Part shown: positions 3,103 through 61,083 of the stretch, one piece after another | How positions within the stretch are numbered: position 1 is the first letter of the stretch | Layout: each line of letters starts with the position of its first letter | DNA from: Candidatus Saccharimonadota bacterium | GTDB lineage: Bacteria; Patescibacteriota; Saccharimonadia; Saccharimonadales; SZUA-47 | Assembly (NCBI GenBank): GCA_016700315.1 | Contig: CP065013.1 | Span: 257,449-321,448 of the forward strand | Length of the DNA: 64,000 nucleotides | Reading direction: 5' to 3' | Program-made: the position numbers and the translations under genes | Notes under the pieces: model-generated | What the model saw: only the letters and a program-made list of their open reading frames with translations | The model's database searches: none | Told to the model about the DNA's origin: nothing

Positions 3103-3232
3103 TACGGCACCACTGATTACCGATTAGCGATAGAGATCCATACGTACTCCGTGCCCTTTACTGTTTGGCTAAAGACACGAGTCATGAGTTGTGAGTTTTG
3201 TGTTTTTTAGTTTTTGTATTTTTTCAAGTTTG

Positions 3233-3260
3233 TTTAGAATTTAGAGTTTAGGATTTAGAA
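3233..3260. repeat. Heptamer array TTTAGAA TTTAGAG TTTAGGA TTTAGAA within a 7-nt-periodic tract (about 3186-3297)
   Basis: Read directly. A near-identical array occurs inside the mutM coding region at 49454-49481. Confidence 0.9.
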
Positions 3261-3320
3261 TTTTACGCTTACTACCAACTACTTGCTACTATTTGTGGAT
3301 TAATACTTTATATATGACAC

Positions 3321-4340: not shown

Positions 4341-4999
4341 TACTCGTTCCCCATTCTTCTAATAACTGTTGTAGATATTTCTGAAAAGCCGCAAAATTCT
4401 TTACCAACATCACTTCTGCAAACGGTGCGGCCATTCTCCTCAACCAGTAAATCACTACTACCAAACACCACGGTTACCGATACTCTCCAAATTCTTTGGT
4501 CGCCGCCAACAGGCTCTACGATTAATCTTGAAAGCCTCATATTCTCTGAAAGCAGCGAAGCGCTTGGCGCTGTAACATCTACGCCAAGATTAGCTTTCGG
4601 AGTAGTGCTGCTGCAAGGAGCAGCTAGCTGATCTCGTATAACAGCATTTTTTATCTGTTTGTCTGCCGCATTTACAGATGGGTTAGTAGCAATCTGTCTA
4701 TCAATTGCATAGGTATAGCGTTTTAAGCCAACACACATTATTCCGGATGGGTCAGCGGAAGGATCAACCATTGGCCCGGCCGGGCCAGTCGATGCCATTA
4801 TTGAGTCAGCGCTTAGCTGAATACCTTGACTAATCTCATTAACAATCTGCCTTGTTGCGTTCTGAACTTTTGTTAACGTAACCCCTTTGTAATAACTACG
4901 GCTGATTGACATCAGCGCTGTTAGACACAGTAGTAGCACCAGAGAAAACACCATTGTCGCAACCATCAATTCAATTATTGTGAAACCTCGCCTTTTCAT
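4340..4999 (-). CDS. Minor pilin with prepilin-type N-terminal cleavage/methylation motif
   Basis: MKRRG|FTIIELMVATMVFSLVLL gives Gly-1, Phe+1 and Glu+5. Confidence 0.8.
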   Translation of the reverse strand: MKRRGFTIIELMVATMVFSLVLLLCLTALMSISRSYYKGVTLTKVQNATRQIVNEISQGIQLSADSIMASTGPAGPMVDPSADPSGIMCVGLKRYTYAIDRQIATNPSVNAADKQIKNAVIRDQLAAPCSSTTPKANLGVDVTAPSASLLSENMRLSRLIVEPVGGDQRIWRVSVTVVFGSSDLLVEENGRTVCRSDVGKEFCGFSEISTTVIRRMGNE

Positions 5000-10720: not shown

Positions 10721-10808
10721 CAGAATTCCCCCCTGATCTCATACTGTTTGGAACAGCCGTATAGAGCCCTGTGCCCTGAGCCCTGAGATATTCTTACTAA
10801 CCCCACCT

Positions 10809-10836
10809 GTCTCTTGTCTCTTGTCTCTTGTCTCTT
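10809..10836. repeat. Perfect heptamer array (GTCTCTT)x4; a second array GAGCCCT GTGCCCT GAGCCCT GAGATAT lies at 10764-10791
   Basis: Read directly in the pilB-pilT spacer. Confidence 0.95.
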
Positions 10837-28109: not shown

Positions 28110-28165
28110 CTTGATACTTTATCCCTCATACTTGATACTAGTTATTATGAGTTTATCGATTGGGA
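28110..28165 (+). repeat. 56-bp direct repeat, copy B: functional ychF 5' region
   Basis: See copy A. Contains the heptamer array GATACTT TATCCCT CATACTT GATACTA and the ychF ATG at 28147. Confidence 0.92.
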
Positions 28166-29238
28166 TTGTTGGGCTGCCGAATGTCGGCAAGAGCACTCTT
28201 TTTAATGCGCTGACAGATGCGAATGCGCTGGCGGCTAATTACCCTTTTGCCACGATTGAACCAAACACCGGCATTGTACCGGTACCAGACGAGCGCCTAG
28301 GCAAGCTGGCCGATATGTACAAAAGTAAGAAAATTGTGCCCGCCACAGTAACTTTTGTAGATATTGCGGGGCTAGTTGAAGGTGCAAGTAAAGGCGAAGG
28401 CCTGGGCAATCAGTTCTTGAGTCATATACGTGCTTGTGATGCAATCCTACAGGTTGTGAGAGCCTTTGAAAGTGGCGATGTAATCAGAAGCGATAGTTCA
28501 CGAGACCCAGAACACGACATAGATGTAGTCGCTACTGAGTTAGTGCTAGCTGACCTGCAAACAGTCGAAAAACGCCTGCCCCGTATTCAAAAAGAGGCCA
28601 AAGCCAATCTAAAATTAAAACCCATGCTAGATTACATAGAGACGGTACACGGAATACTTGACTCAGGCAAGCCTCTTTTTTCAGAGTCAGGAGTCATGAG
28701 CCATGAGCTAAGAGGTTGGCTCCAAAAAGAACTGCAGCTTATGACTTTAAAGCCGATTCTGTATCTATTTAACATCGATGACGACGCACTAAGTAGCAAC
28801 GAGCTGAAAACTAAGCTTCGTAACATCGTCACACCCGCCCCCGCTCTTTTTGTTAGCGCCAAGCTAGAAGATGAGCTGCGTGGACTAGATGATATCGACA
28901 GGGCTGAAATGCTGGCAAGCTACGGCGCTAGTGAGTCTGGGCTCAACCAAGTTATCCACTCGGCCTATGACCTACTGGGGCTGCAAAGCTACTTAACCGC
29001 TGGCGAGCAAGAAGTCCGCGCCTGGACCATAAAAAAGGGTTGGACGGCACCACAAGCAGCCGGCGTAATACATGGCGACTTCGAAAGAGGCTTCATAGCT
29101 GCACAAATCGTAGACTATAACGACCTAGTTGCGGCCGGCAGCGAGCAAGCAGCCAAGTCGGCTGGCAAGGTTCGCACCGAAGGCAAAACCTACCAGATGC
29201 GTGAGGGCGATGTGGTAGAGTTCAGGTTCAACGTCTAG
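28147..29238 (+). CDS. ychF: Ribosome-binding ATPase YchF (Obg family)
   Basis: MSLSIGIVGLPNVGKSTLFNALT G1 motif, DIAGLVEGASKGEGLGN, and C-terminal GDFERGFIAAQIV. Start moved to the ATG at 28147. Confidence 0.93.
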   Translation: MSLSIGIVGLPNVGKSTLFNALTDANALAANYPFATIEPNTGIVPVPDERLGKLADMYKSKKIVPATVTFVDIAGLVEGASKGEGLGNQFLSHIRACDAILQVVRAFESGDVIRSDSSRDPEHDIDVVATELVLADLQTVEKRLPRIQKEAKANLKLKPMLDYIETVHGILDSGKPLFSESGVMSHELRGWLQKELQLMTLKPILYLFNIDDDALSSNELKTKLRNIVTPAPALFVSAKLEDELRGLDDIDRAEMLASYGASESGLNQVIHSAYDLLGLQSYLTAGEQEVRAWTIKKGWTAPQAAGVIHGDFERGFIAAQIVDYNDLVAAGSEQAAKSAGKVRTEGKTYQMREGDVVEFRFNV

Positions 29239-30470: not shown

Positions 30471-31244
30471 TTAACGCAAGCTTTTTAGCATATAAAATCG
30501 CTCGACGTTTCCTTTGCTACCGGCAAGTCCAGAATCAGCTTTGTCAACTATTTTGAACAAATTTTGTACCCAGCTTTCGAAGTCGTGAATAATTTCGCGA
30601 CGAACTTTGCTATTTTTGATTACACCCCTGTTAATTTGCTCCTTGCCTGCTTCAAACTGAGGCTTGAGCATAGCTATGATTAATGTTTTGTTATTAACGA
30701 ATAAAGAGATGTGAGGTAGTATTTTTCGCATCGAAATAAAGCTCACGTCAATCACTACTATGTCTGGTACTTCGGAGAGTACTACTCTTCGTTCCTCGTT
30801 CTTCGTTCCTCGTTCTATTTGGCTACTTTGTAGCCAAATCTCACGAATATCAGTCTTTTCGTGCAGTTCAATTTTGGGATTTCCTAACAGTGTTGGGTGA
30901 AGTTGATCCGTGCCAACATCAACTGCAACAACTTTACTAGCACCATTTTGCAGTGCAAAATCCGTGAAGCCTCCCGTGCTACTGCCCACGTCCAAAACGA
31001 CTTTATTTGTAAAATCTAGCCCTAGCTCTCTCGCTACAGAAGCCAGCTTCTCGCCTGCTCGTGATACGTACTTTCCTGCTGTAGCTGAAACTACAATTTT
31101 GTCACTAGCTGAAACCTCGAAAGCCGGTTTTGTAATAACATTACCGTTAACTCGCACCGTGCCGCGCTTAATCAAATCCTCGGCCCTAGACCGCGACTGA
31201 GTCTTGCCTGACAAAAATAAAACTTGATCAAGCCGCCGCTTCAT
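30471..31244 (-). CDS. tlyA: TlyA-family 16S/23S rRNA (cytidine-2'-O)-methyltransferase
   Basis: N-terminal S4 domain (RLDQVLFLSGKTQSRSRAEDLIKRGTVRVNG) and FtsJ-type SAM motif VLDVGSSTGGFTD. Confidence 0.88.
   Translation of the reverse strand: MKRRLDQVLFLSGKTQSRSRAEDLIKRGTVRVNGNVITKPAFEVSASDKIVVSATAGKYVSRAGEKLASVARELGLDFTNKVVLDVGSSTGGFTDFALQNGASKVVAVDVGTDQLHPTLLGNPKIELHEKTDIREIWLQSSQIERGTKNEERRVVLSEVPDIVVIDVSFISMRKILPHISLFVNNKTLIIAMLKPQFEAGKEQINRGVIKNSKVRREIIHDFESWVQNLFKIVDKADSGLAGSKGNVERFYMLKSLR
30787..30839. repeat. Intragenic module inside tlyA: heptamer array (CTTCGTT CCTCGTT)x2 plus adjacent 9-bp-stem hairpin ATTTGGCTA-CTTTG-TAGCCAAAT
   Basis: Read directly. Translated in frame as WLQSSQIERGTKNEERRVV. 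Confidence 0.9.
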
Positions 31245-34179: not shown

Positions 34180-34497
34180 CTAGCTGTTGCGTACTGACAC
34201 TATCTTCTCTGCCTTGGCATCAAACTTCCATTCAGCACATGTACCTTTACCTATTCTACGGCCACAAATAAGGACTGCGCCAAAAAAAATTCTCTGTTCG
34301 CCTATGGATTCGTATATTAAACCCCTTACTTCGGGAGTAATGCCGCCGATGCGTATTGCCTCAAGTTCATCTGCAATAGAAACCTCAGCAGCAGCTTCAA
34401 GCAGTTTACCTGCAGCTGCTTTGTAGACGTCGTCGCTCCACCCTTCATCCCTGCCGTTTCTGGTGCATCTAGGGCATACTTCAGGTAGACAGTTCAT
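34180..34497 (-). CDS. Hypothetical 105-aa Cys-containing protein inserted between rpsF and ssb
   Basis: ATGA overlap with the rpsF stop. CPRC motif near the N-terminus. No family recognised. Confidence 0.45.
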   Translation of the reverse strand: MNCLPEVCPRCTRNGRDEGWSDDVYKAAAGKLLEAAAEVSIADELEAIRIGGITPEVRGLIYESIGEQRIFFGAVLICGRRIGKGTCAEWKFDAKAEKIVSVRNS

Positions 34498-34880
34498 TAC
34501 TCTTCGTCCTTGTCGTCTTCTTCGTCGTCAGCCGAGGTGCGCTTGGCAGCTTTTTCGGCTTTTTCGGCTTTCAAAGCTTCTGCTTTTGCAATCGCCTTTA
34601 GGTCAGGCTTGGTCAAAAGAAATCTTATAACTTCTTCTGTAATGTTAAGCTGATCGTTAATAGCCTTTACGCCTTCTGCCGGAAGCTCTAGCGTGTAGAA
34701 CACGTAGACGGCATGGTTAACGCCTTTGATAGTGTAAGCCATCTTACGCTTACCCCAGTTATCGGTAGCCTTGATTTCACCCTTAACACTTTTGACTAGT
34801 TTCTCGATTTTGCCGGTAGCTTTGTCGAGATCTGCCTCAAGATCAGGGTGAATTAACACCGCTAATTCGTATTGTGACAT
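34497..34880 (-). CDS. rpsF: 30S ribosomal protein S6 with acidic C-terminal tail
   Basis: MSQYELAVLIHPDLEADLDK...WGKRKMAYTIKGVNHAVYVFYTLE. Confidence 0.92.
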   Translation of the reverse strand: MSQYELAVLIHPDLEADLDKATGKIEKLVKSVKGEIKATDNWGKRKMAYTIKGVNHAVYVFYTLELPAEGVKAINDQLNITEEVIRFLLTKPDLKAIAKAEALKAEKAEKAAKRTSADDEEDDKDEE

Positions 34881-34910
34881 TCGTCACTCCTTTCTTCTGC
34901 GAAGAAACGA

Positions 34911-34988
34911 GTTAGTAGTTAGTAGTTGGTAGTTGGTAGTTAGTAGCCTCATGAGCTACCATCTACCATCTACCTTCTACCTTCTACC
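34911..34988 (-). promoter_or_regulatory. Long imperfect hairpin in the rpsF leader built from two inverted heptamer arrays
   Basis: GTTAGTAGTTAGTAGTTGGTAGTTGGTAGTTAGTAGC (34911-47), a 7-nt loop, then GCTACCATCTACCATCTACCTTCTACCTTCTACC (34955-88). Hand pairing gives runs of 5-7 bp separated by mismatches roughly once per heptamer unit. Confidence 0.6.
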
Positions 34989-35114
34989 GACCTGTAACTT
35001 CTTTCGGTTTCTAGGTTAGGCGCACCAGAGGCCCCAACCAAGAAGTTAATTAATATTAAATATAGTATAAAGTATTATGAATAAAGTATCAAGTGCTAAG
35101 TGCTAACAAATGCG

Positions 35115-43428: not shown

Positions 43429-43638
43429 CTAGTCAATGAGAGCCCTGGTCGCCATACCACCAACGACTAAAACACTACGCCCTTCACCCAGTTTTCGCAA
43501 ACCATTATCACCAGTTAAAGCCAACATGTCTTTATCAACTACGCCATTCCAGCCAGTTATGGGTTGGCCTAGCTCGTCTGCTGTAGGCTCTTTAAGTTCC
43601 GACAACTCACCATAAAAACTACCTTCAATTTCCGTCAT
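43429..43638 (-). CDS. Hypothetical protein (69 aa)
   Basis: ORF in operon position between truB and rpsO. No motif recognised. Confidence 0.4.
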   Translation of the reverse strand: MTEIEGSFYGELSELKEPTADELGQPITGWNGVVDKDMLALTGDNGLRKLGEGRSVLVVGGMATRALID

Positions 43639-43675
43639 TTCTGCTCCTTATTTCGAATCAATACTACAACAGCGC

Positions 43676-44383
43676 CTAGATATCTTCAATAGTTTTAGCA
43701 TCTTTTACTTCATAGCCTCCGATTTTCGTACGTCGAAGCTCAAGACAGTAAGCACCCGTACCAAGTTCTTTGCCAATATCTTCCGCAAGGGTACGAATGT
43801 ATGTGCCGCTGGAGACATGGGCACGTACTTTTATTTCTGGCCAGACGTACTCAAGCAGCTCCAGGCTATAAATCGTTACTTGGCGTGGTTTCAGTTCGAC
43901 TTTTTTGCCCGCCCTAGCAAGCTCATAAGCCTTTTTGCCGTTAACCTTGATAGCCGAATACTGCGGCGGCACCTGCGTGATCTCACCAACAAACTTAGCT
44001 AGCGCCTTTTGTACCTCTTCAGTAGATGGTAGATGGTAGTTAGTAGTTGGAGTGGCTTCTCTTCGTTCATCGTTCAGCATCCCTCGTTCTGTGATTTCCC
44101 CTTCCGGATCACCGGTCGTCGAGACAGCCCCAAGTCGAAAAGTCGCCTCATAGACCTTATCTTGCTTCATAAACTCGTCCTGACGCTTCGTGGCACTGCC
44201 AATCAGGATTATCAGCAGCCCCGTAGCAAAAGGATCGAGCGTGCCACTGTGGCCTACTTTTAGTTTCTGTTTACCGTTTACTGAGGACTGAGGACTATTT
44301 TTTCGTAAATCAGAGCGGATTTTGGCCACCACATCAAAACTAGTCCACCCCGATGGTTTATCTATCAGAATTACTTGATCCAT
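43676..44383 (-). CDS. truB: tRNA pseudouridine(55) synthase
   Basis: KVGHSGTLDPFATGLLIILIG catalytic Asp motif, and QVPPQYSAIKVNGKKAYELAR. Confidence 0.92.
   Translation of the reverse strand: MDQVILIDKPSGWTSFDVVAKIRSDLRKNSPQSSVNGKQKLKVGHSGTLDPFATGLLIILIGSATKRQDEFMKQDKVYEATFRLGAVSTTGDPEGEITERGMLNDERREATPTTNYHLPSTEEVQKALAKFVGEITQVPPQYSAIKVNGKKAYELARAGKKVELKPRQVTIYSLELLEYVWPEIKVRAHVSSGTYIRTLAEDIGKELGTGAYCLELRRTKIGGYEVKDAKTIEDI
44022..44088. repeat. Intragenic heptamer arrays inside truB: GTAGATG GTAGATG GTAGTTA GTAGTTG (44022-49) and CTTCGTT CATCGTT CAGCATC CCTCGTT (44061-88)
   Basis: Read directly. Translated in frame as ERGMLNDERREATPTTNYHLPST. The E. coli TruB sequence as I recall it is about 14 residues shorter here. 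Confidence 0.85.
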
Positions 44384-45026
44384 CCAAAAACTCCTGCTGA
44401 ATCAATTCCCCAATTTCCGTACGGTATTCGCCTAAGGCATTACGACACACTAAAGTTGCCATGGTTGATATATCTTCAACGCAAAATTCAGCAACTCTGC
44501 TACTTTCGATACTACGAGTGTCTGTAACACCGGCCAGTACAAAACTGACTCTAAAGAGATTACGTCTAGTGTAAACGCCCGTACCCCCTACCTCACTGAC
44601 TACGCCAGGTTGGTTGGGTACGGGTGGCAGTAGCGCTTCTAGGCCTTCGTTGACTATGTCAAAAGTCGGAAAAGCTTCGCCTTTTACGACTCTTGATCGC
44701 CAGCTGTAATGTCGGCTACCTTTCGAAGCTTGCTCGCCTTTTTCAGCGATAATCTCCGAGCCGCTATTAATAATTATCTCTTTGACTTTATCATCAGTAA
44801 CCCCAGCCCGTCTTAAATAGCCAGCTATGCAAGCAATTAGGGTCGTATCGCTACCGTAAGACATGTTGAATAGTTTTAATCTAGGATCATCATGCTCAGG
44901 CCTCTGTTTTATATCGCCGCTCCAAGCGGCGATAAGGATGTCACCGTGACCAAAATACCCATATTCAATATTTCTATCAACTCCAAAATTTGTAGGGGGC
45001 AACTGCCTCCTTAACCTCTCATACAT
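44358..45026 (-). CDS. Hypothetical protein (222 aa)
   Basis: Coding-like ORF that overlaps the truB start by 26 nt. No motif recognised. Confidence 0.55.
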   Translation of the reverse strand: MYERLRRQLPPTNFGVDRNIEYGYFGHGDILIAAWSGDIKQRPEHDDPRLKLFNMSYGSDTTLIACIAGYLRRAGVTDDKVKEIIINSGSEIIAEKGEQASKGSRHYSWRSRVVKGEAFPTFDIVNEGLEALLPPVPNQPGVVSEVGGTGVYTRRNLFRVSFVLAGVTDTRSIESSRVAEFCVEDISTMATLVCRNALGEYRTEIGELIQQEFLDGSSNSDR

Positions 45027-47248: not shown

Positions 47249-47632
47249 ATGCCAATTATCAAATCAGCCAAGAAGCGCGTCAAAGTTGCCCGTAAAGCTA
47301 CTGTCAGAAACGCTAAAACCAAGAAAAGCGTACGAGGTGCACTAAAGGCTTTTGCCAGCGCAGTGTCTGGCAAAAAAGCCGTTTCATCTAGCCGCAGCAA
47401 GGCCCAAAGTGCCATCGACAAGGCAGTCAAAAAAGGTGTAATGAGCAAAAAGCGTGCAGCACGTAAAAAAAGCCAGCTGAGCAAATCCGCCAAAGCTAGC
47501 GGTGCCAAAGTTGAGAAGCGCTCTGCCCCAAAGAAAACTCAGCTCAAAAAAGCTAGCGTCAAGAAAGCCGCTCCAAAGAAATCTACAGCCAAAAAACCAG
47601 CTGCCAAAAAAGTTTCTGCAAAGAAAAAATAG
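47249..47632 (+). CDS. rpsT: 30S ribosomal protein S20 with Lys/Ala-rich C-terminal extension
   Basis: MPIIKSAKKRVKVARKATVRNAKTKKSVRGALKAF followed by a ~45-aa KKAAPKK-type tail. Confidence 0.9.
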   Translation: MPIIKSAKKRVKVARKATVRNAKTKKSVRGALKAFASAVSGKKAVSSSRSKAQSAIDKAVKKGVMSKKRAARKKSQLSKSAKASGAKVEKRSAPKKTQLKKASVKKAAPKKSTAKKPAAKKVSAKKK

Positions 47633-48628: not shown

Positions 48629-48770
48629 GCTAGAGCTTCTCCTGGCAGCTCGGGCACAGATGTGTGCCTCGCCCAGCAGGGTTTGTTCTAGGAGGGGCAC
48701 ACCCCTCCGCTTCAAAACTGAAGTAAATTCAGTTTTTCGCCCTCCCCCTAAAGGCAGTGCTTACAGCTCT
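48629..48770 (-). repeat. ~50-bp duplicate of the mutM 3' end (48629-48678) plus ~92-nt two-hairpin element, copy C (48679-48770)
   Basis: CTGGCAGCTCGGGCACAGATGTGTGCCTCGCCCAGCA is identical in both copies (second copy at 48781-48817). The duplicate keeps frame and stop (…GRGTHLCPSCQEKL-stop versus …CQQL-stop). Hairpins are GGAGGGG-CACA-CCCCTCC and AAAACTGAA-GTAAA-TTCAGTTTT. Confidence 0.88.
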
Positions 48771-48771
48771 G

Positions 48772-49743
48772 CTAGAGTTGCTGGCAGCTCGGGCACAGAT
48801 GTGTGCCTCGCCCAGCAACTCTTGTTTTAATGATGGTGGTTTGGCAGCGTGGGCACGGGGCACCTTCTTTGCGGAAGACTCTAGCGAAATCTATGTAACT
48901 TCCCCGCTTGCCTTCAGCGTTGACATAGTTACGGTCGGTGCTGCCGCCTTTTTCGATCGACAACTTGAGTACATAAATAATTTCAGAGTGCAGCTTAGTC
49001 AGTCTGGCATTTGAGAGATCCCGGACCAAGCTTGCCGGATGAATACTAGACCCCCAAAGCGATTCGTCAGCGTAGATATTGCCCACTCCTGCCAGAACTG
49101 TTTGATCCAAAAGCGCCGCCTTAATGCTGCTATTTTTGCGCTTTTGCAGTCTTTTGATTAAGACTTTGGGCATAAAATCTTCTTCTAGCGGTTCAGGCCC
49201 AACCTTTTTCATAAAATCAATTTCGGCGACAGCAATCGTCGGCATTAACCTTACCCAGCCAAACTTACGCTGGTCATTGAAGTATAGGTGCTCGCTATCC
49301 CCAAGAAAGAAATCTACCCTTGTCGATTTATCGGGCAGGTTACCTACTAGCGAATTGTTTGGATGCCCAGCCCCAAACCGAGTCTCTGTCTCGGAAAATT
49401 CTAAATCATGAGGACCATATCCTAAATTTTTTTCTTTTTTGTTTTTATTATTTTTTAGAATTTCGGATTTAGATTTTAGGGTTTTTCTTTGTCCGACAAA
49501 GACTAGTTGCCCTGTCATTTTAAGATGAATAACAAAAGTGTAGCCAGTCGACAAATCGATCATCAAAACTTTAGCTCGGCGACGCACATCAATAATTTTG
49601 GCGCCGATTGCAAACTTACTTACCTCTGTTTCTGGGTTTGGGAAGCTTTTTGCCCAGTCGTGAGTAATTTTTGTGATCGACTTACCAACAATCAAACTAA
49701 CTAGTCCGAGTCGGACGGTTTCAACTTCAGGCAGCTCTGGCAT
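48772..49743 (-). CDS. mutM: Formamidopyrimidine-DNA glycosylase
   Basis: MPELPEVETVRLGL N-terminus, H2TH region, and C-terminal zinc finger CPRCQTTIIKTRVAGRGTHLCPSCQ. Confidence 0.9.
   Translation of the reverse strand: MPELPEVETVRLGLVSLIVGKSITKITHDWAKSFPNPETEVSKFAIGAKIIDVRRRAKVLMIDLSTGYTFVIHLKMTGQLVFVGQRKTLKSKSEILKNNKNKKEKNLGYGPHDLEFSETETRFGAGHPNNSLVGNLPDKSTRVDFFLGDSEHLYFNDQRKFGWVRLMPTIAVAEIDFMKKVGPEPLEEDFMPKVLIKRLQKRKNSSIKAALLDQTVLAGVGNIYADESLWGSSIHPASLVRDLSNARLTKLHSEIIYVLKLSIEKGGSTDRNYVNAEGKRGSYIDFARVFRKEGAPCPRCQTTIIKTRVAGRGTHLCPSCQQL
49454..49481. repeat. Intragenic heptamer array in mutM: TTTAGAA TTTCGGA TTTAGAT TTTAGGG
   Basis: Read directly. Same unit family as the intergenic array at 3233-3260. 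Translated as KTLKSKSEILK. Confidence 0.88.
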
Positions 49744-58374: not shown

Positions 58375-61083
58375 TCATAGCTCCCCCCATGTTTTACCGG
58401 TGGATATGTCTACACGCAGTTTTACGCCCAGCTCTGGATAAATATTTTCCATAGTCTGCTTCATCATTTTGCCAACCCGCTCAGCATCAGCTTCGGCACA
58501 TTCAACCAAAATACTGTCATGTATCTGCAATATCTGTCTCGGCTCTTCCTCGTTCCTCGTTCCTCGTTCCTCGTTCCAGTGTCTAAATTGGCTTTCTAAT
58601 TTAGACATTGCCATCTTGGTTATATCAGCAGCGCCTCCCTGAATTGGCATATTGATTGCGGCCCGCAAAGCTGCCTCACGTACGACAAAATTGCTGCTCC
58701 GAGCATCCGGCGTTGGGCGGCGACGTCCGAGCGGCGTCTCCACAAAACCTTTGTTTTTGGCTTGGTCACGAAAACGCTCCATCATTGCCTTCAGTTTGGG
58801 GCGCACCTCGAAGTATTTATCGATAAACTTTTTGGAATCGGCGTAGCTCATGCCCGTTCCTTCACTGAGTCCGTGAACACCTTGCCCATACAAAATACCG
58901 AAATTAACAGCTTTGGCCGCGTAGCGCATCTCTTTGCTGACTTCTTCGGGCTTGACACCTTGAACCAAAGCGGCCGTCTCGATATGAATGTCTCGATCAG
59001 AGTTAAACGACTCAATCATTGCTTGATCACCGCTCAGTGCCGCGGCAATGCGAAGCTCAAACTGACTGTAGTCGGCACTCACCAATACATTGCCAGGCTC
59101 GGCGATAAAGCCAGTTCTGATCTCTCGACCAATTTCGGTGCGGATAGGAATGTTCTGCAAGTTGGGATCGTTGCTACTAAGCCGGCCAGTTGCTGCGACC
59201 GTCAGCGCCAGTGTTGTATGTATACGATTGTTCTCATCTACCTGCTCTGGCAGCGTATCTACGTAGGTACTTTTGAGCTTTGTGTACTCACGATATTTCT
59301 CGATATCGTTGATGATCGGGTGAAGGTCTTTTAGTTTAGCGAGTACGTTACTGGCTGTGCTGAAGTGGCCAGCCTTCCCTTTCTTGCTTGCGATTGTAGG
59401 CAAGTTTAGCTTCACAAACAAAATATCACTCAGCTGGCTAGGACTTGAGATATTAAACTCTTGGTCGGCATAGCCATAAATTGTTTGTTCAATGTCACTA
59501 ATTTGATCTGTTAACTTGTCAGATAAAACCTTGAAAAAGCTTGGCTCAATCTTCACCCCAGTACGCTCAATTCGAGCTAAGACTGGTATCACTGGCCAGT
59601 CCACTTGCTCGGCCATTTTGATCAAACTTGTAACCTCGCTCATTTGCTCACCCTGTCGCTCAGCAAGCCCCCGGATCACAGCGCAGATTTCTGGTAGCTT
59701 AATTAGCGCTTCATCATCATCAATATTGTCGAGCTCACCAGCGTAGTTTAGATCCTCGCTCGCAAGCGCCGTAAGCGAAAAATCTCGCCTCAGAGAATTA
59801 ACAATAAATGCGCCAACTTGTGTGTCGTGGCTTACCTGCGGCAAGTTTTCTATCCCAAGCTCGAGTAAAATTTGAAAGATATTCTTTAAATCGTGCCCGG
59901 TAACGGCTTTGCCGTTTAGTAGTTGGTCGATGGTAGATGGTAGATGGGAATTAGCTACTGATTTTCTTAAATCAAAAATATAGCAATTTGTTTTGTCAGA
60001 TAGCGCCAAAACAGTTGGCTCGTGACCGTGCTTACCACTGCTGCGAGCAAAAATTACTACATCCCCTTCAAGCTGCAGCGATGACACTGCGGAGCTCTCC
60101 TGAACGTAGACAGGTGTCGGGGTTTTGAGATCGAGGATTGCCGCACTTATGTTTGACGAAAGGTCATTTGTCGATTCTGCAACTGCTACTTTGGACGAAT
60201 CACTACGCATTCCTTGTGGCAAGTTGCGCAGCAGGCTCCTGAACTCTAGGCGCTTTAGTATGCTTGCCAGCTCATTCGTATCTAGCTTATTTATGTCCAT
60301 TTGTTCAAGGTCCAGCTCGATTGGCGCATCTGCGTAAAGTCGAGCAATTTCTTTACTCATGTAGGCCGAATCTCGCCCCGCTTCAAGCTTTTTCTGTACT
60401 GCGCCCTTGGTGAGAGCAACATTCTCGTAAACACCATCGAGAGTTTTGTATTGTTTAAGTAGTTCAACCGCTGTTTTTTCACCAATGCCAGGAACACCGG
60501 GAATGTTGTCCGACGAATCGCCTTTTAGAGCTTTTAAGTCCAGAAATTGCTCAGGCTCGAGGCCGTATTTATCACGAAATTGTTCTGGCCGATAAAGCTC
60601 GATATTTGTTAGTCCTTTTTTGAGCGCATAGACATGGGTGTTCTCGCTAATGCACTGCAGTGCATCAAGATCACTGGTGATTAGCATTGTCTCTAACCCG
60701 GCGGCATCAGCTTTTTTAGCCAGGCCACACATAATATCGTCTGCCTCGTAATCATCGAGTTCGTATAGCGGCCAATTTAGTGCTCTTAGCAGCTCGTGAA
60801 GAATAGGAATTTGTACATAAAAGTCTGGCGGTGCCGGCTTTCGTCCTGCCTTGTAGTCTGGGTAGACGGCTAGTCGTTTTCGGATATTGGTTTTTGGTTT
60901 ATCCCAAGCTACACAAACATAATCTGGTTTGAGCCGCTTAATCAGCTCCAGCGCCATTGCTGCGAAGCCATAAACTCCCCCTGTTGGCGTCCCGTCGGCG
61001 GTCGAAAGCCCCGGCATCGCGTAATAGCCACGGTAAAAGACTGACTTTCCGTCGATAATCGCAAGTTTTTTTCTACTCTCCAT
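58375..61083 (-). CDS. polA: DNA polymerase I
   Basis: 5'-nuclease domain, DYSQFELRIAA (motif A), KAVNFGILYGQG (motif B) and QIHDSILVE (motif C). Confidence 0.94.
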   Translation of the reverse strand: MESRKKLAIIDGKSVFYRGYYAMPGLSTADGTPTGGVYGFAAMALELIKRLKPDYVCVAWDKPKTNIRKRLAVYPDYKAGRKPAPPDFYVQIPILHELLRALNWPLYELDDYEADDIMCGLAKKADAAGLETMLITSDLDALQCISENTHVYALKKGLTNIELYRPEQFRDKYGLEPEQFLDLKALKGDSSDNIPGVPGIGEKTAVELLKQYKTLDGVYENVALTKGAVQKKLEAGRDSAYMSKEIARLYADAPIELDLEQMDINKLDTNELASILKRLEFRSLLRNLPQGMRSDSSKVAVAESTNDLSSNISAAILDLKTPTPVYVQESSAVSSLQLEGDVVIFARSSGKHGHEPTVLALSDKTNCYIFDLRKSVANSHLPSTIDQLLNGKAVTGHDLKNIFQILLELGIENLPQVSHDTQVGAFIVNSLRRDFSLTALASEDLNYAGELDNIDDDEALIKLPEICAVIRGLAERQGEQMSEVTSLIKMAEQVDWPVIPVLARIERTGVKIEPSFFKVLSDKLTDQISDIEQTIYGYADQEFNISSPSQLSDILFVKLNLPTIASKKGKAGHFSTASNVLAKLKDLHPIINDIEKYREYTKLKSTYVDTLPEQVDENNRIHTTLALTVAATGRLSSNDPNLQNIPIRTEIGREIRTGFIAEPGNVLVSADYSQFELRIAAALSGDQAMIESFNSDRDIHIETAALVQGVKPEEVSKEMRYAAKAVNFGILYGQGVHGLSEGTGMSYADSKKFIDKYFEVRPKLKAMMERFRDQAKNKGFVETPLGRRRPTPDARSSNFVVREAALRAAINMPIQGGAADITKMAMSKLESQFRHWNEERGTRNEEEPRQILQIHDSILVECAEADAERVGKMMKQTMENIYPELGVKLRVDISTGKTWGEL
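58548..58607. repeat. Intragenic module inside polA: perfect (CCTCGTT)x4 plus adjacent 10-bp-stem hairpin TGTCTAAATT-GGCTTTCT-AATTTAGACA
   Basis: Read directly. Translated in frame as KLESQFRHWNEERGTRNEEEPRQ, just upstream of motif C. Confidence 0.92.
59917..59951. repeat. Second intragenic heptamer array in polA: TAGTAGT TGGTCGA TGGTAGA TGGTAGA TGGGAAT
   Basis: Read directly. Same unit family as the truB and rpsF-leader arrays. Translated as ANSHLPSTIDQLL. Confidence 0.85.

Follow-up and report, generated by a model that had tools for sequence, protein, structure and literature searches.

Heptanucleotide repeats as probable colonisers of a permissive TruB loop in a Saccharimonadales bacterium

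How does a run of seven-nucleotide repeats, with a period that is no multiple of three, come to lie in frame in the middle of a conserved housekeeping gene? The question is raised by truB in a 64,000-nt stretch of DNA from Candidatus Saccharimonadota bacterium (GenBank assembly GCA_016700315.1, contig CP065013.1, positions 257,449 to 321,448 of the forward strand; hereafter the window), where two unlike heptamer arrays are fused within the reading frame. The answer that we consider probable is that dispersed heptamer repeats, similar in behaviour to the short tandemly repeated repetitive (STRR) arrays of cyanobacteria, have colonised a permissive loop of TruB, and that the peptide they encode is a tolerated by-product, not a new functional domain. 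What we document here is the anatomy of the insert, its restriction to a lineage, the existence of an alternative allele, the predicted disorder of the peptide, its fast divergence, and the recurrence of such inserts at the same TruB loop; how the arrays arose and moved is treated conditionally further below.

The features concerned are collected in Table 1. A preliminary description of this locus, made from the letters alone, had reported two unlike heptamer arrays fused in frame in truB, with a sequence and coordinates that proved exact. Read on the coding strand from 44089 to 44021, the insert runs through array 2, then G-AGAAGCCACTC-, then array 1, and closes with a T. Array 2 reads GAACGAG GGATGCT GAACGAT GAACGAA in this direction and yields the peptide ERGMLNDERR, and array 1 reads CAACTAC TAACTAC CATCTAC CATCTAC and yields PTTNYHLPST, so that the two can be written as the degenerate consensuses (GAACGAN)4 and (CWACTAC)4. 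In the in-frame translation the insert peptide is flanked by GDPEGEIT and EEVQKALAKFVGEITQVPPQYSAIK. The segment of 69 nt comprises eight units plus 13 nt and takes the place of a native loop of 27 nt (nine codons), for a net gain of 14 amino acids. The equation first proposed, of about 14 additional residues with six heptamers or 42 nt, holds for the residues, since there are 13-14 more than in E. coli TruB, and holds for the nucleotides only as a net figure, the balance of 69 nt over 27.

Table 1. Coordinates of truB, its repeat arrays and related arrays in the window
Feature	Position in window	Strand	Sequence or content	Remarks
YchF array	28684..28708	+	GAGTCAG GAGTCAT GAGCCAT	in frame
TlyA-like methyltransferase array	30786..30816	-	CTTCGTT/TTCCTCG family	in frame, IERGTKNEERR
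rpsF leader arrays	34910..34988		AGTTAGT x5.3 + CTACCAT x4.7, inverted orientation	GTAGATG/GTAGTTR family
truB	43676..44383	-	235 aa	TruB_N + TruB_C_2, without PUA domain
69-nt in-frame insert	44021..44089	-	TruB residues 99-121	ERGMLNDERREATPTTNYHLPST
Heptamer segment	44022-44088		two four-unit arrays	in frame in truB
Array 1 (3' in gene)	44022..44049	-	+ strand GTAGATG GTAGATG GTAGTTA GTAGTTG	
Inter-array spacer, 11 nt	44050..44060	-	+ strand GAGTGGCTTCT	codes for part of REAT
Array 2 (5' in gene)	44061..44088	-	+ strand CTTCGTT CATCGTT CAGCATC CCTCGTT	
Third short heptamer array in truB	44280..44296	-	coding strand AGTCCTC x2.4	SPQSSV; called by Tandem Repeats Finder
polA array, TTCCTCG	58546..58577	-	TTCCTCG x4.6, perfect copies	in frame, WNEERGTRNEE
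polA array, GTAGATG family	59919..59947	-		in frame, SHLPSTIDQLL

The two arrays differ in how well they have kept their period. Tandem Repeats Finder (TRF) calls array 1 with period 7, 4.1 copies and 86% matches; it matches itself at lag 7 in 18 of 21 positions, and its 14-mer has 10 matches in the window against 0.23 expected. Array 2 is degenerate (13 of 21 at lag 7, which about 1% of the positions in the window attain) and goes uncalled by TRF at scores of 30 or more. We accept it as real because its 14-mer, allowing up to two mismatches, matches the arrays of the TlyA-like gene and polA seven times against 0.45 expected, and because in a related genome (L003, below) this site holds a more distinct array of its family. 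These counts bear out the proposal that the truB arrays belong to the unit families of the rpsF leader and of polA and the TlyA-like gene. In neither array do more than two identical units stand side by side. The translated frame of the segment is stop-free, and to this extent the claim that the sense units lack stop codons stands, whereas both other sense frames carry stops (TAA in the unit TAACTAC, TGA at GATGAAC and GCTGAAC). The companion claim, that the antisense form does contain stops, applies to the GTAGATG family and fails for the CTTCGTT family, whose antisense is also stop-free.

The enzyme core of TruB is intact despite the insert. The protein is identical to QQS65205.1, from a Candidatus Saccharibacteria bacterium with a contig of 988 kb, the domains PF01509 and PF16198 are found on identical or near-identical database proteins, phmmer aligns it with the solved structures 1r3f, 1k8w and 1sgv at E ~1e-37, and its AlphaFold2 (AF2) model superposes on E. 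coli TruB (1k8w) with a template modelling (TM) score of 0.80 in Foldseek. The sequence VGHSGTLDPFATG, which corresponds to the GH(S/T)GTLDP motif, is present with D50, a residue that we take to be the catalytic Asp, and is invariant across our alignment A1. The insert lies between the strand ending in GDPEGEIT and the helix EEVQKALAK, in a loop that usually reads GEITDVSxxxPSxEEV in Saccharimonadales and is 14 residues longer in the window. Measured from GDPEG. to F.G.I.Q.PP, this segment has 20 residues in 62 of 115 Saccharimonadales homologs, at least 29 in 30 of them, and 34 in the window. The insert is a lineage-specific feature of a variable loop: it is absent from the TruBs of E. coli, M. 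tuberculosis (relative to which the excess is again 13-14 residues) and most Saccharimonadales, and the additional residues are not conserved across distant TruBs. The structural model that had been called for places it as follows. Residues 100-120 are modelled as coil between the strand 97-99 and the helix 121-129, and the predicted local distance difference test score (pLDDT) has a mean of 83 and drops under 50 in two stretches only, residues 34-37 and 103-113, so that the insert peptide is predicted to form a hydrophilic, disordered loop. The former of these stretches coincides with the third heptamer array of the gene, and a second expansion, of 12 residues relative to the E. coli and M. 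tuberculosis proteins, spans residues 26-38. That third array (AGTCCTC, residues 30-35, in the other variable, low-confidence loop) is also carried by the sister contig discussed next.

Strains for comparison were drawn from the protein database and from exact look-ups, the contigs L001, L002, L167 and L189 coming from Danish wastewater and soil metagenomes; scans of the metagenome-contig and genome-contig collections gave no TruB relatives above 58% identity. In an alignment of 15,041 bases the sister contig L002 shares 98.4% identity with the window and, scaffold N-runs aside, has its sole indel at the truB insert site. There, 72 nt of the window are replaced by AAGCGA GAGTCAT GAGCCAA GAGTCAT GAGCCAA, encoding SESHEPRVMSQ, and the resulting TruB has 222 amino acids against 235, a difference of 39 nt with a different array. 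Downstream of the loop the two contigs are identical for about 300 nt, and they have in common two flanking single-nucleotide polymorphisms (SNPs) that are absent from other long-allele strains. Derivation of the 5′ array of the window from the L002 array by point mutation was considered and found unconvincing, with 14 of 29 positions shared in a manual count. Independent assemblies (NCBI, JGI, ENA and Logan) hold about 20 distinct sequences of 235 residues and 5 of 222. An N-terminal DLRK/NLRR polymorphism is seen with both alleles and all four combinations exist, which implies recombination.

Within the 235-aa or the 222-aa class no length variation was seen. The 21-nt steps of length that had been anticipated were therefore not found: the roughly 20 long alleles have one length, and the short allele differs from them by 39 nt. 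Point differences, on the other hand, are concentrated in the insert, where 7 of 23 positions vary against 14 of 212 in the rest of TruB (p = 0.0016), making it about six times more variable; between the window and strain L166, 9 of the 69 insert nucleotides differ, against 3 of the remaining 639 of truB. Three further strains, 98.4-98.5% identical over 20 kb, differ by few indels. Strain L168 has lost exactly one 7-nt unit (TTAGCAC) from an intergenic array at 35100-35106, between the FtsK gene and rpsF, from which we conclude that unit slippage does occur. No indels were seen within the two rpsF-leader arrays in three close strains.

The truB arrays are part of a wider phenomenon. A census of tandem periods from 4 to 15 in the window, with shuffled controls, gave 15 arrays at period 7, 10 at its harmonic 14 and 0-2 at any other period, the shuffles giving about none; period 7 is the sole enriched tandem period within the window. 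Arrays are mostly intergenic (11 of 18, in a non-coding part that makes up 14% of the window; p = 6e-6), and each unit family occupies 3-4 loci within the 64 kb. In control loci of other phyla, period 7 was again the most frequent.

Several of the related arrays also lie inside genes. In polA (58375-61083, minus strand), the TTCCTCG array makes the protein 10 residues longer than Taq polymerase immediately ahead of the conserved QVHD block, presumably motif C. The array of the TlyA-like gene (30471-31244) adds 12 residues relative to 3hp7. The array of ychF (28111-29238) overwrites a loop and leaves its length nearly unchanged, and its family is the one that occupies the truB loop in L002. Upstream of rpsF (34497-34880, minus strand), the two leader arrays form a long imperfect hairpin of -48.2 kcal/mol (z = -7.4, window 34890-35010); truB array 1 has an exact identity of 18 nt with window 34956. 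All three loci of the CATCTAC family mix CATCTAC-type units with units of the CAACTAC or TAACTAC type. At the peptide level, HLPST is common to TruB and PolA, and strings resembling NEERGTR appear in PolA, TlyA and TruB. Of 77 Saccharimonadales PolA fragments, 50 have a loop of 14 residues before QVHD and about 20 have one of 22-41; several are 7-aa periodic there, one carrying NEERRTKNEE, and in these sequences the PolA loop is an insertion hotspot. A search for strain polymorphism with the C-terminal fragment of PolA returned only fragments at 73% identity or less.

Turning to the same TruB loop elsewhere in the Saccharimonadales, we see it occupied again and again by repeats. In L003 (protein P0009, about 80% identical outside the loops) it holds GAACGGC GAGCGAT GAACGAT GAACGAA, of the family of window array 2 and with no second array; in L160 (P0010) it holds AGTCATG AGTCAAG AGTCATA AGTCAAG, of the family of L002; and P0011, sister of P0009, has neither a GAACGAN nor a GAGTCAT array. 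The loop carries AATTTCC x5 in L005, AAATTYG x4 in L007, and CTCGATT x3.5, a spacer and CAAGCAT x4 in L164. In L163 (truB of P0015, 5001-5822) the arrays are octamers, GAGAGCGG x3.5 and AGTTAGAA x5, together with a 14-mer, so the in-frame repeat phenomenon is not strictly one of period 7. In L189 the loop combines GCAGATG/GAAGATG x4 with an 8-mer pair and a 14-mer, and its end (GCA ACG CCA TAT ... CAT ATT CCA) agrees in 26 of 42 positions, by manual count and without a shift of codon register, with window array 1 plus the flank to its left, on which ground the two arrays may be homologous. Parts of the window insert also resemble array-derived loops elsewhere in the order, NDER recurring in P0009 and ATPYSNSHIP in P0016. 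Over the long inserts as a whole, residue self-identity is 0.142 at lag 7 and 0.103 at lag 8, against 0.05-0.08 at other lags. No periodicity was found in the long inserts of L089, L162 and L165, and no heptamer arrays in many Saccharimonadales loci (L080-L102), which indicates that the heptamer-array trait is lineage-specific.

Three regularities were recorded among the arrays beyond truB. Arrays of different heptamers often form adjacent pairs 8-30 nt apart, as at window 3173-3263, 10766-10836, 34910-34988 and 44022-44088, and likewise at L160 1-65, L163 1789-1868 and L164 2339-2424. The trinucleotide TAG or its complement CTA is contained in 16 of 36 heptamer units against 6.5 expected (p = 2.4e-4, uncorrected and from counts that are not independent), counted over the window and L003, L005, L006, L007, L081, L160, L163, L164 and L189. 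Cognate units occur in different genera (GTAGATG, CTAGATG, GTAGACG, GCAGATG), and TTTAGAA is common to the window and L005; similar unit pairs across genera number 23 against 10.2 expected for random 7-mers, these counts again not being independent.

If the interpretation favoured here is correct, heptamer arrays would arise or land throughout the genome, and those surviving within genes would be the ones in tolerant surface loops. We infer that they originate by slipped-strand amplification together with copying between arrays at different loci. To survive inside a gene, an array would have to be free of stops in its orientation or variant and add up to a multiple of three nucleotides, and selection would remove only versions that fail in either respect. 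Since 7 is not divisible by 3, three or more units traverse all frames (21 nt) and give the same 7-aa periodic peptide in whatever phase they are read. The TruB insert would then be a surviving array, now decaying by point mutation and segregating against the alternative cassette, the two cassette alleles presumably being shuffled by homologous recombination, and in our reading its peptide would be a tolerated by-product without a catalytic role. As to how the arrays multiply, the shared unit variants, the overwriting of loops without change of length, the mismatch between array type and tree, the excess of TAG and the cross-genus units are more suggestive of copying from locus to locus, or of a sequence-specific process, than of independent slippage.

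Several observations weigh against so simple an account. Array type is incongruent with the TruB tree, GAACGAN being found in the window and P0009 and GAGTCAT in P0008 and P0010, which requires that arrays were gained in parallel, that cassettes were transferred or that the polymorphism is old, and for which simple slippage in place is insufficient. The recurrence of units across genera and the excess of units with TAG hint at a sequence-specific process. The inserts of L166 and L167 outpace even third codon positions (p = 2e-4 to 1e-3), a divergence that points beyond neutral drift. The approximately 20 long alleles show neither length change nor frameshift and keep the core NDERREAT..TN.H.PST, so that some constraint on the insert may persist.

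One rival explanation is that the arrays are not products of local slippage but were written by an active copy-and-paste process, by templated and sequence-specific writing through, for instance, short-patch gene conversion or template switching from donor arrays, or a dedicated enzyme, with the truB loop as a recurrent target and strains switching cassettes. To the incongruence with phylogeny and the cognate units in several genera this explanation can add that the three CATCTAC-family loci share both unit types, with the 18-nt identity between truB and 34956; that every truB cassette family has a copy at a second locus, the GAGTCAT GAGCCAT of ychF resembling the cassette of L002; that the window and L002 carry different cassettes in spite of their common flanking SNPs; that the arrays of YchF and of L002 TruB overwrite the loop with hardly any change of length; and that adjacent pairs of unlike units are frequent. 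We nevertheless regard it as rather unlikely, for no terminal inverted repeats, target duplications, common spacer or common core were seen at the compared loci, array boundaries and unit numbers vary at each locus, no candidate enzyme emerged, the truB arrays of the strains have diverged and were not re-homogenised, and, with a scope of 64 kb, part of the family sharing might stem from selection in favour of the few units that are tolerable. Less probable still is that the loop was extended adaptively and gives TruB a selected new surface, disordered or for interaction, whose basis might be a peptide motif (HLPST, NEERGTR) that PolA and TlyA have as well. Such selection would account for the constant length of some 20 distinct alleles, for the like peptides in three enzymes and for a like ATPxxNxH[IL]P segment in a clade about 73% identical outside the loops. 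Shared heptamers, though, give shared peptides automatically and in any frame, and the sixfold variability of the insert relative to the rest of the protein, its modelling as low-pLDDT coil, the natural sister allele that does without it and the short loop of most Saccharimonadales TruBs all speak against a selected surface.

Two further explanations can be put aside with greater confidence. A unit length not divisible by three, and the one-unit variation seen in the intergenic array, invite the idea that gain or loss of a single 7-nt unit shifts the truB frame and acts as an on/off switch. This is largely refuted and very improbable: no single-unit variant of the insert was seen among about 30 related sequences (excluding shorter entries of 93-216 aa and P0089, with its altered C-terminus), each allele class has one length, 235 or 222 aa, slippage should be rare in arrays so degenerate that no more than two neighbouring units are identical, and the site is in the middle of the gene, away from its 5′ end and promoter. 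An artefact of assembly or sequencing would be conceivable in a repeat-rich region, short repeats being prone to mis-assembly and L002 having N-runs elsewhere; it is refuted, and next to nothing speaks for retaining it, because the insert recurs, with point differences, in about 20 distinct sequences from the independent assemblies and the alternative allele in 5.

Colonisation by dispersed repeats thus stays our preferred reading, and other kinds of element were considered at the same site. Folding of the sense RNA of 44000-44110 is poorer than that of its shuffles (z = +1.57), no promoter or terminator consensus was found in 43600-44500, and Rfam gave two sub-threshold matches only, both distant from the insert; on these three grounds the insert was judged to hold neither an RNA element nor a regulatory signal. 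An antisense open reading frame (ORF) at 44033-44263 (76 aa), which starts inside the array, was treated as spurious because it overlaps the well-supported truB. A classic transposon footprint would leave at most one duplication, against the 4-6 units seen. Traits of miniature inverted-repeat transposable elements (MITE) or repetitive extragenic palindromes (REP) were not found, the truB segment having no hairpin and the loci no spacer or flank in common, and the 11-nt truB spacer has no copy alongside the other arrays of the window. In viral contigs the 18-mer of array 1 has 5 matches, about chance by a rough estimate, and the 21-mer (GAACGAG)3 has 14.

The closest parallel is with the STRR sequences of cyanobacteria, which likewise consist of tandem 7-nt units in several dispersed families, mostly intergenic and sometimes at a tolerant site within a conserved gene; STRR heptanucleotides reportedly occur, according to the title of Vioque's 1997 paper as given in PMC2858038, in the RNase P RNA gene of heterocyst-forming cyanobacteria. 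The host here is a member of the Saccharimonadales with a genome of about 1 Mb and not a cyanobacterium, and the units are unlike the known ones of STRR (CCCCAGT and others), for which two reasons the arrays are STRR-like in behaviour and not members of the STRR families. They differ as well in being translated in frame into 7-aa periodic loop peptides and in forming alternative alleles between strains. Dispersal and enrichment of period-7 simple sequence repeats (SSRs) are also features of the GGGNATC repeats of Xanthomonas and Nostoc, but those are G-rich, quadruplex-forming and under-represented on coding strands, whereas the units described here have no G-tracts, and no in-frame colonisation of enzyme loops has been described for GGGNATC. 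Three tandemly repetitive heptanucleotides are known from Calothrix, and bacterial heptameric repeats are said to be over-represented and barely studied; period-7 SSRs occur genome-wide, are enriched in non-coding DNA and differ in their number of units (PMC4692102).

Repeats inside ORFs have their best-described counterpart in Borgs, where all such units are divisible by three, create new and mostly disordered protein segments and stand at the same places in related proteins (PMC9879509). The amino-acid tandem repeats (aaTR) of Borgs resemble the truB insert in that fast-evolving nucleotide repeats within an ORF give a segment of predicted disorder (here, pLDDT below 50 at 103-113). They differ in that the unit here is of 7 nt (8 in one relative), so that the frame can be kept only through the total length, and that the hosts are cytoplasmic housekeeping enzymes. 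Contingency loci such as the heptamer tracts of Haemophilus have in common with the present arrays a unit not divisible by three and a unit number that slippage can change, yet the truB insert has no long perfect tract, no single-unit variants and no 5′ or promoter position. The searchable literature yielded no report linking Saccharibacteria or other bacteria of the candidate phyla radiation (CPR) with heptamer or simple-sequence repeats. Saccharibacteria are reported to show natural competence (PMC10633639).

Some features of the region unrelated to the loop may be mentioned briefly. Between the genes of RNase J and FtsK, at window 37520, L166 and L168 have an additional gene (AstE_AspA-like, PF24827; about 956 bp), which the window lacks. 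L002 has a 139-bp tandem duplication at 4421-4673, equivalent to window ~48760-48817, which stands beside an N-run and may be a scaffolding artefact. A region of 15/45-nt tandem repeats lies at window 47528-47627, inside a small ORF (47249-47632, plus strand), and 15 nt of it (47597-47611) are deleted in strain L168.

It is hard not to speculate about what a stronger version of these results would entail. In it, environmental Saccharimonadales would possess a sequence-specific and active copying of heptamers, a set of ‘mobile microsatellites’ with TAG-rich unit superfamilies shared across genera, which would repeatedly write 7-aa periodic peptides into the same surface loops of the essential enzymes TruB, PolA, TlyA and YchF and swap cassettes among close strains. 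We would bet against this proposal, at roughly one chance in a handful; if true, such a system would be an undescribed mechanism of protein-loop diversification with machinery of its own.

In conclusion, the results of this work point to a new route of insertion, by which repeats with a period that is no multiple of three can settle stably in conserved housekeeping proteins, three units being enough to restore the frame. The sites where arrays survive amount to a map of the permissive loops of TruB and PolA, and the two cassette alleles are usable as a strain marker in wastewater-type communities. For annotation, inserts of this kind should be mistaken neither for functional domains nor for assembly errors. 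With its genome of only about 1 Mb, this bacterium is possibly a tractable subject in which to study the cause of the bacterial excess of period-7 repeats and the spread of such arrays between loci.

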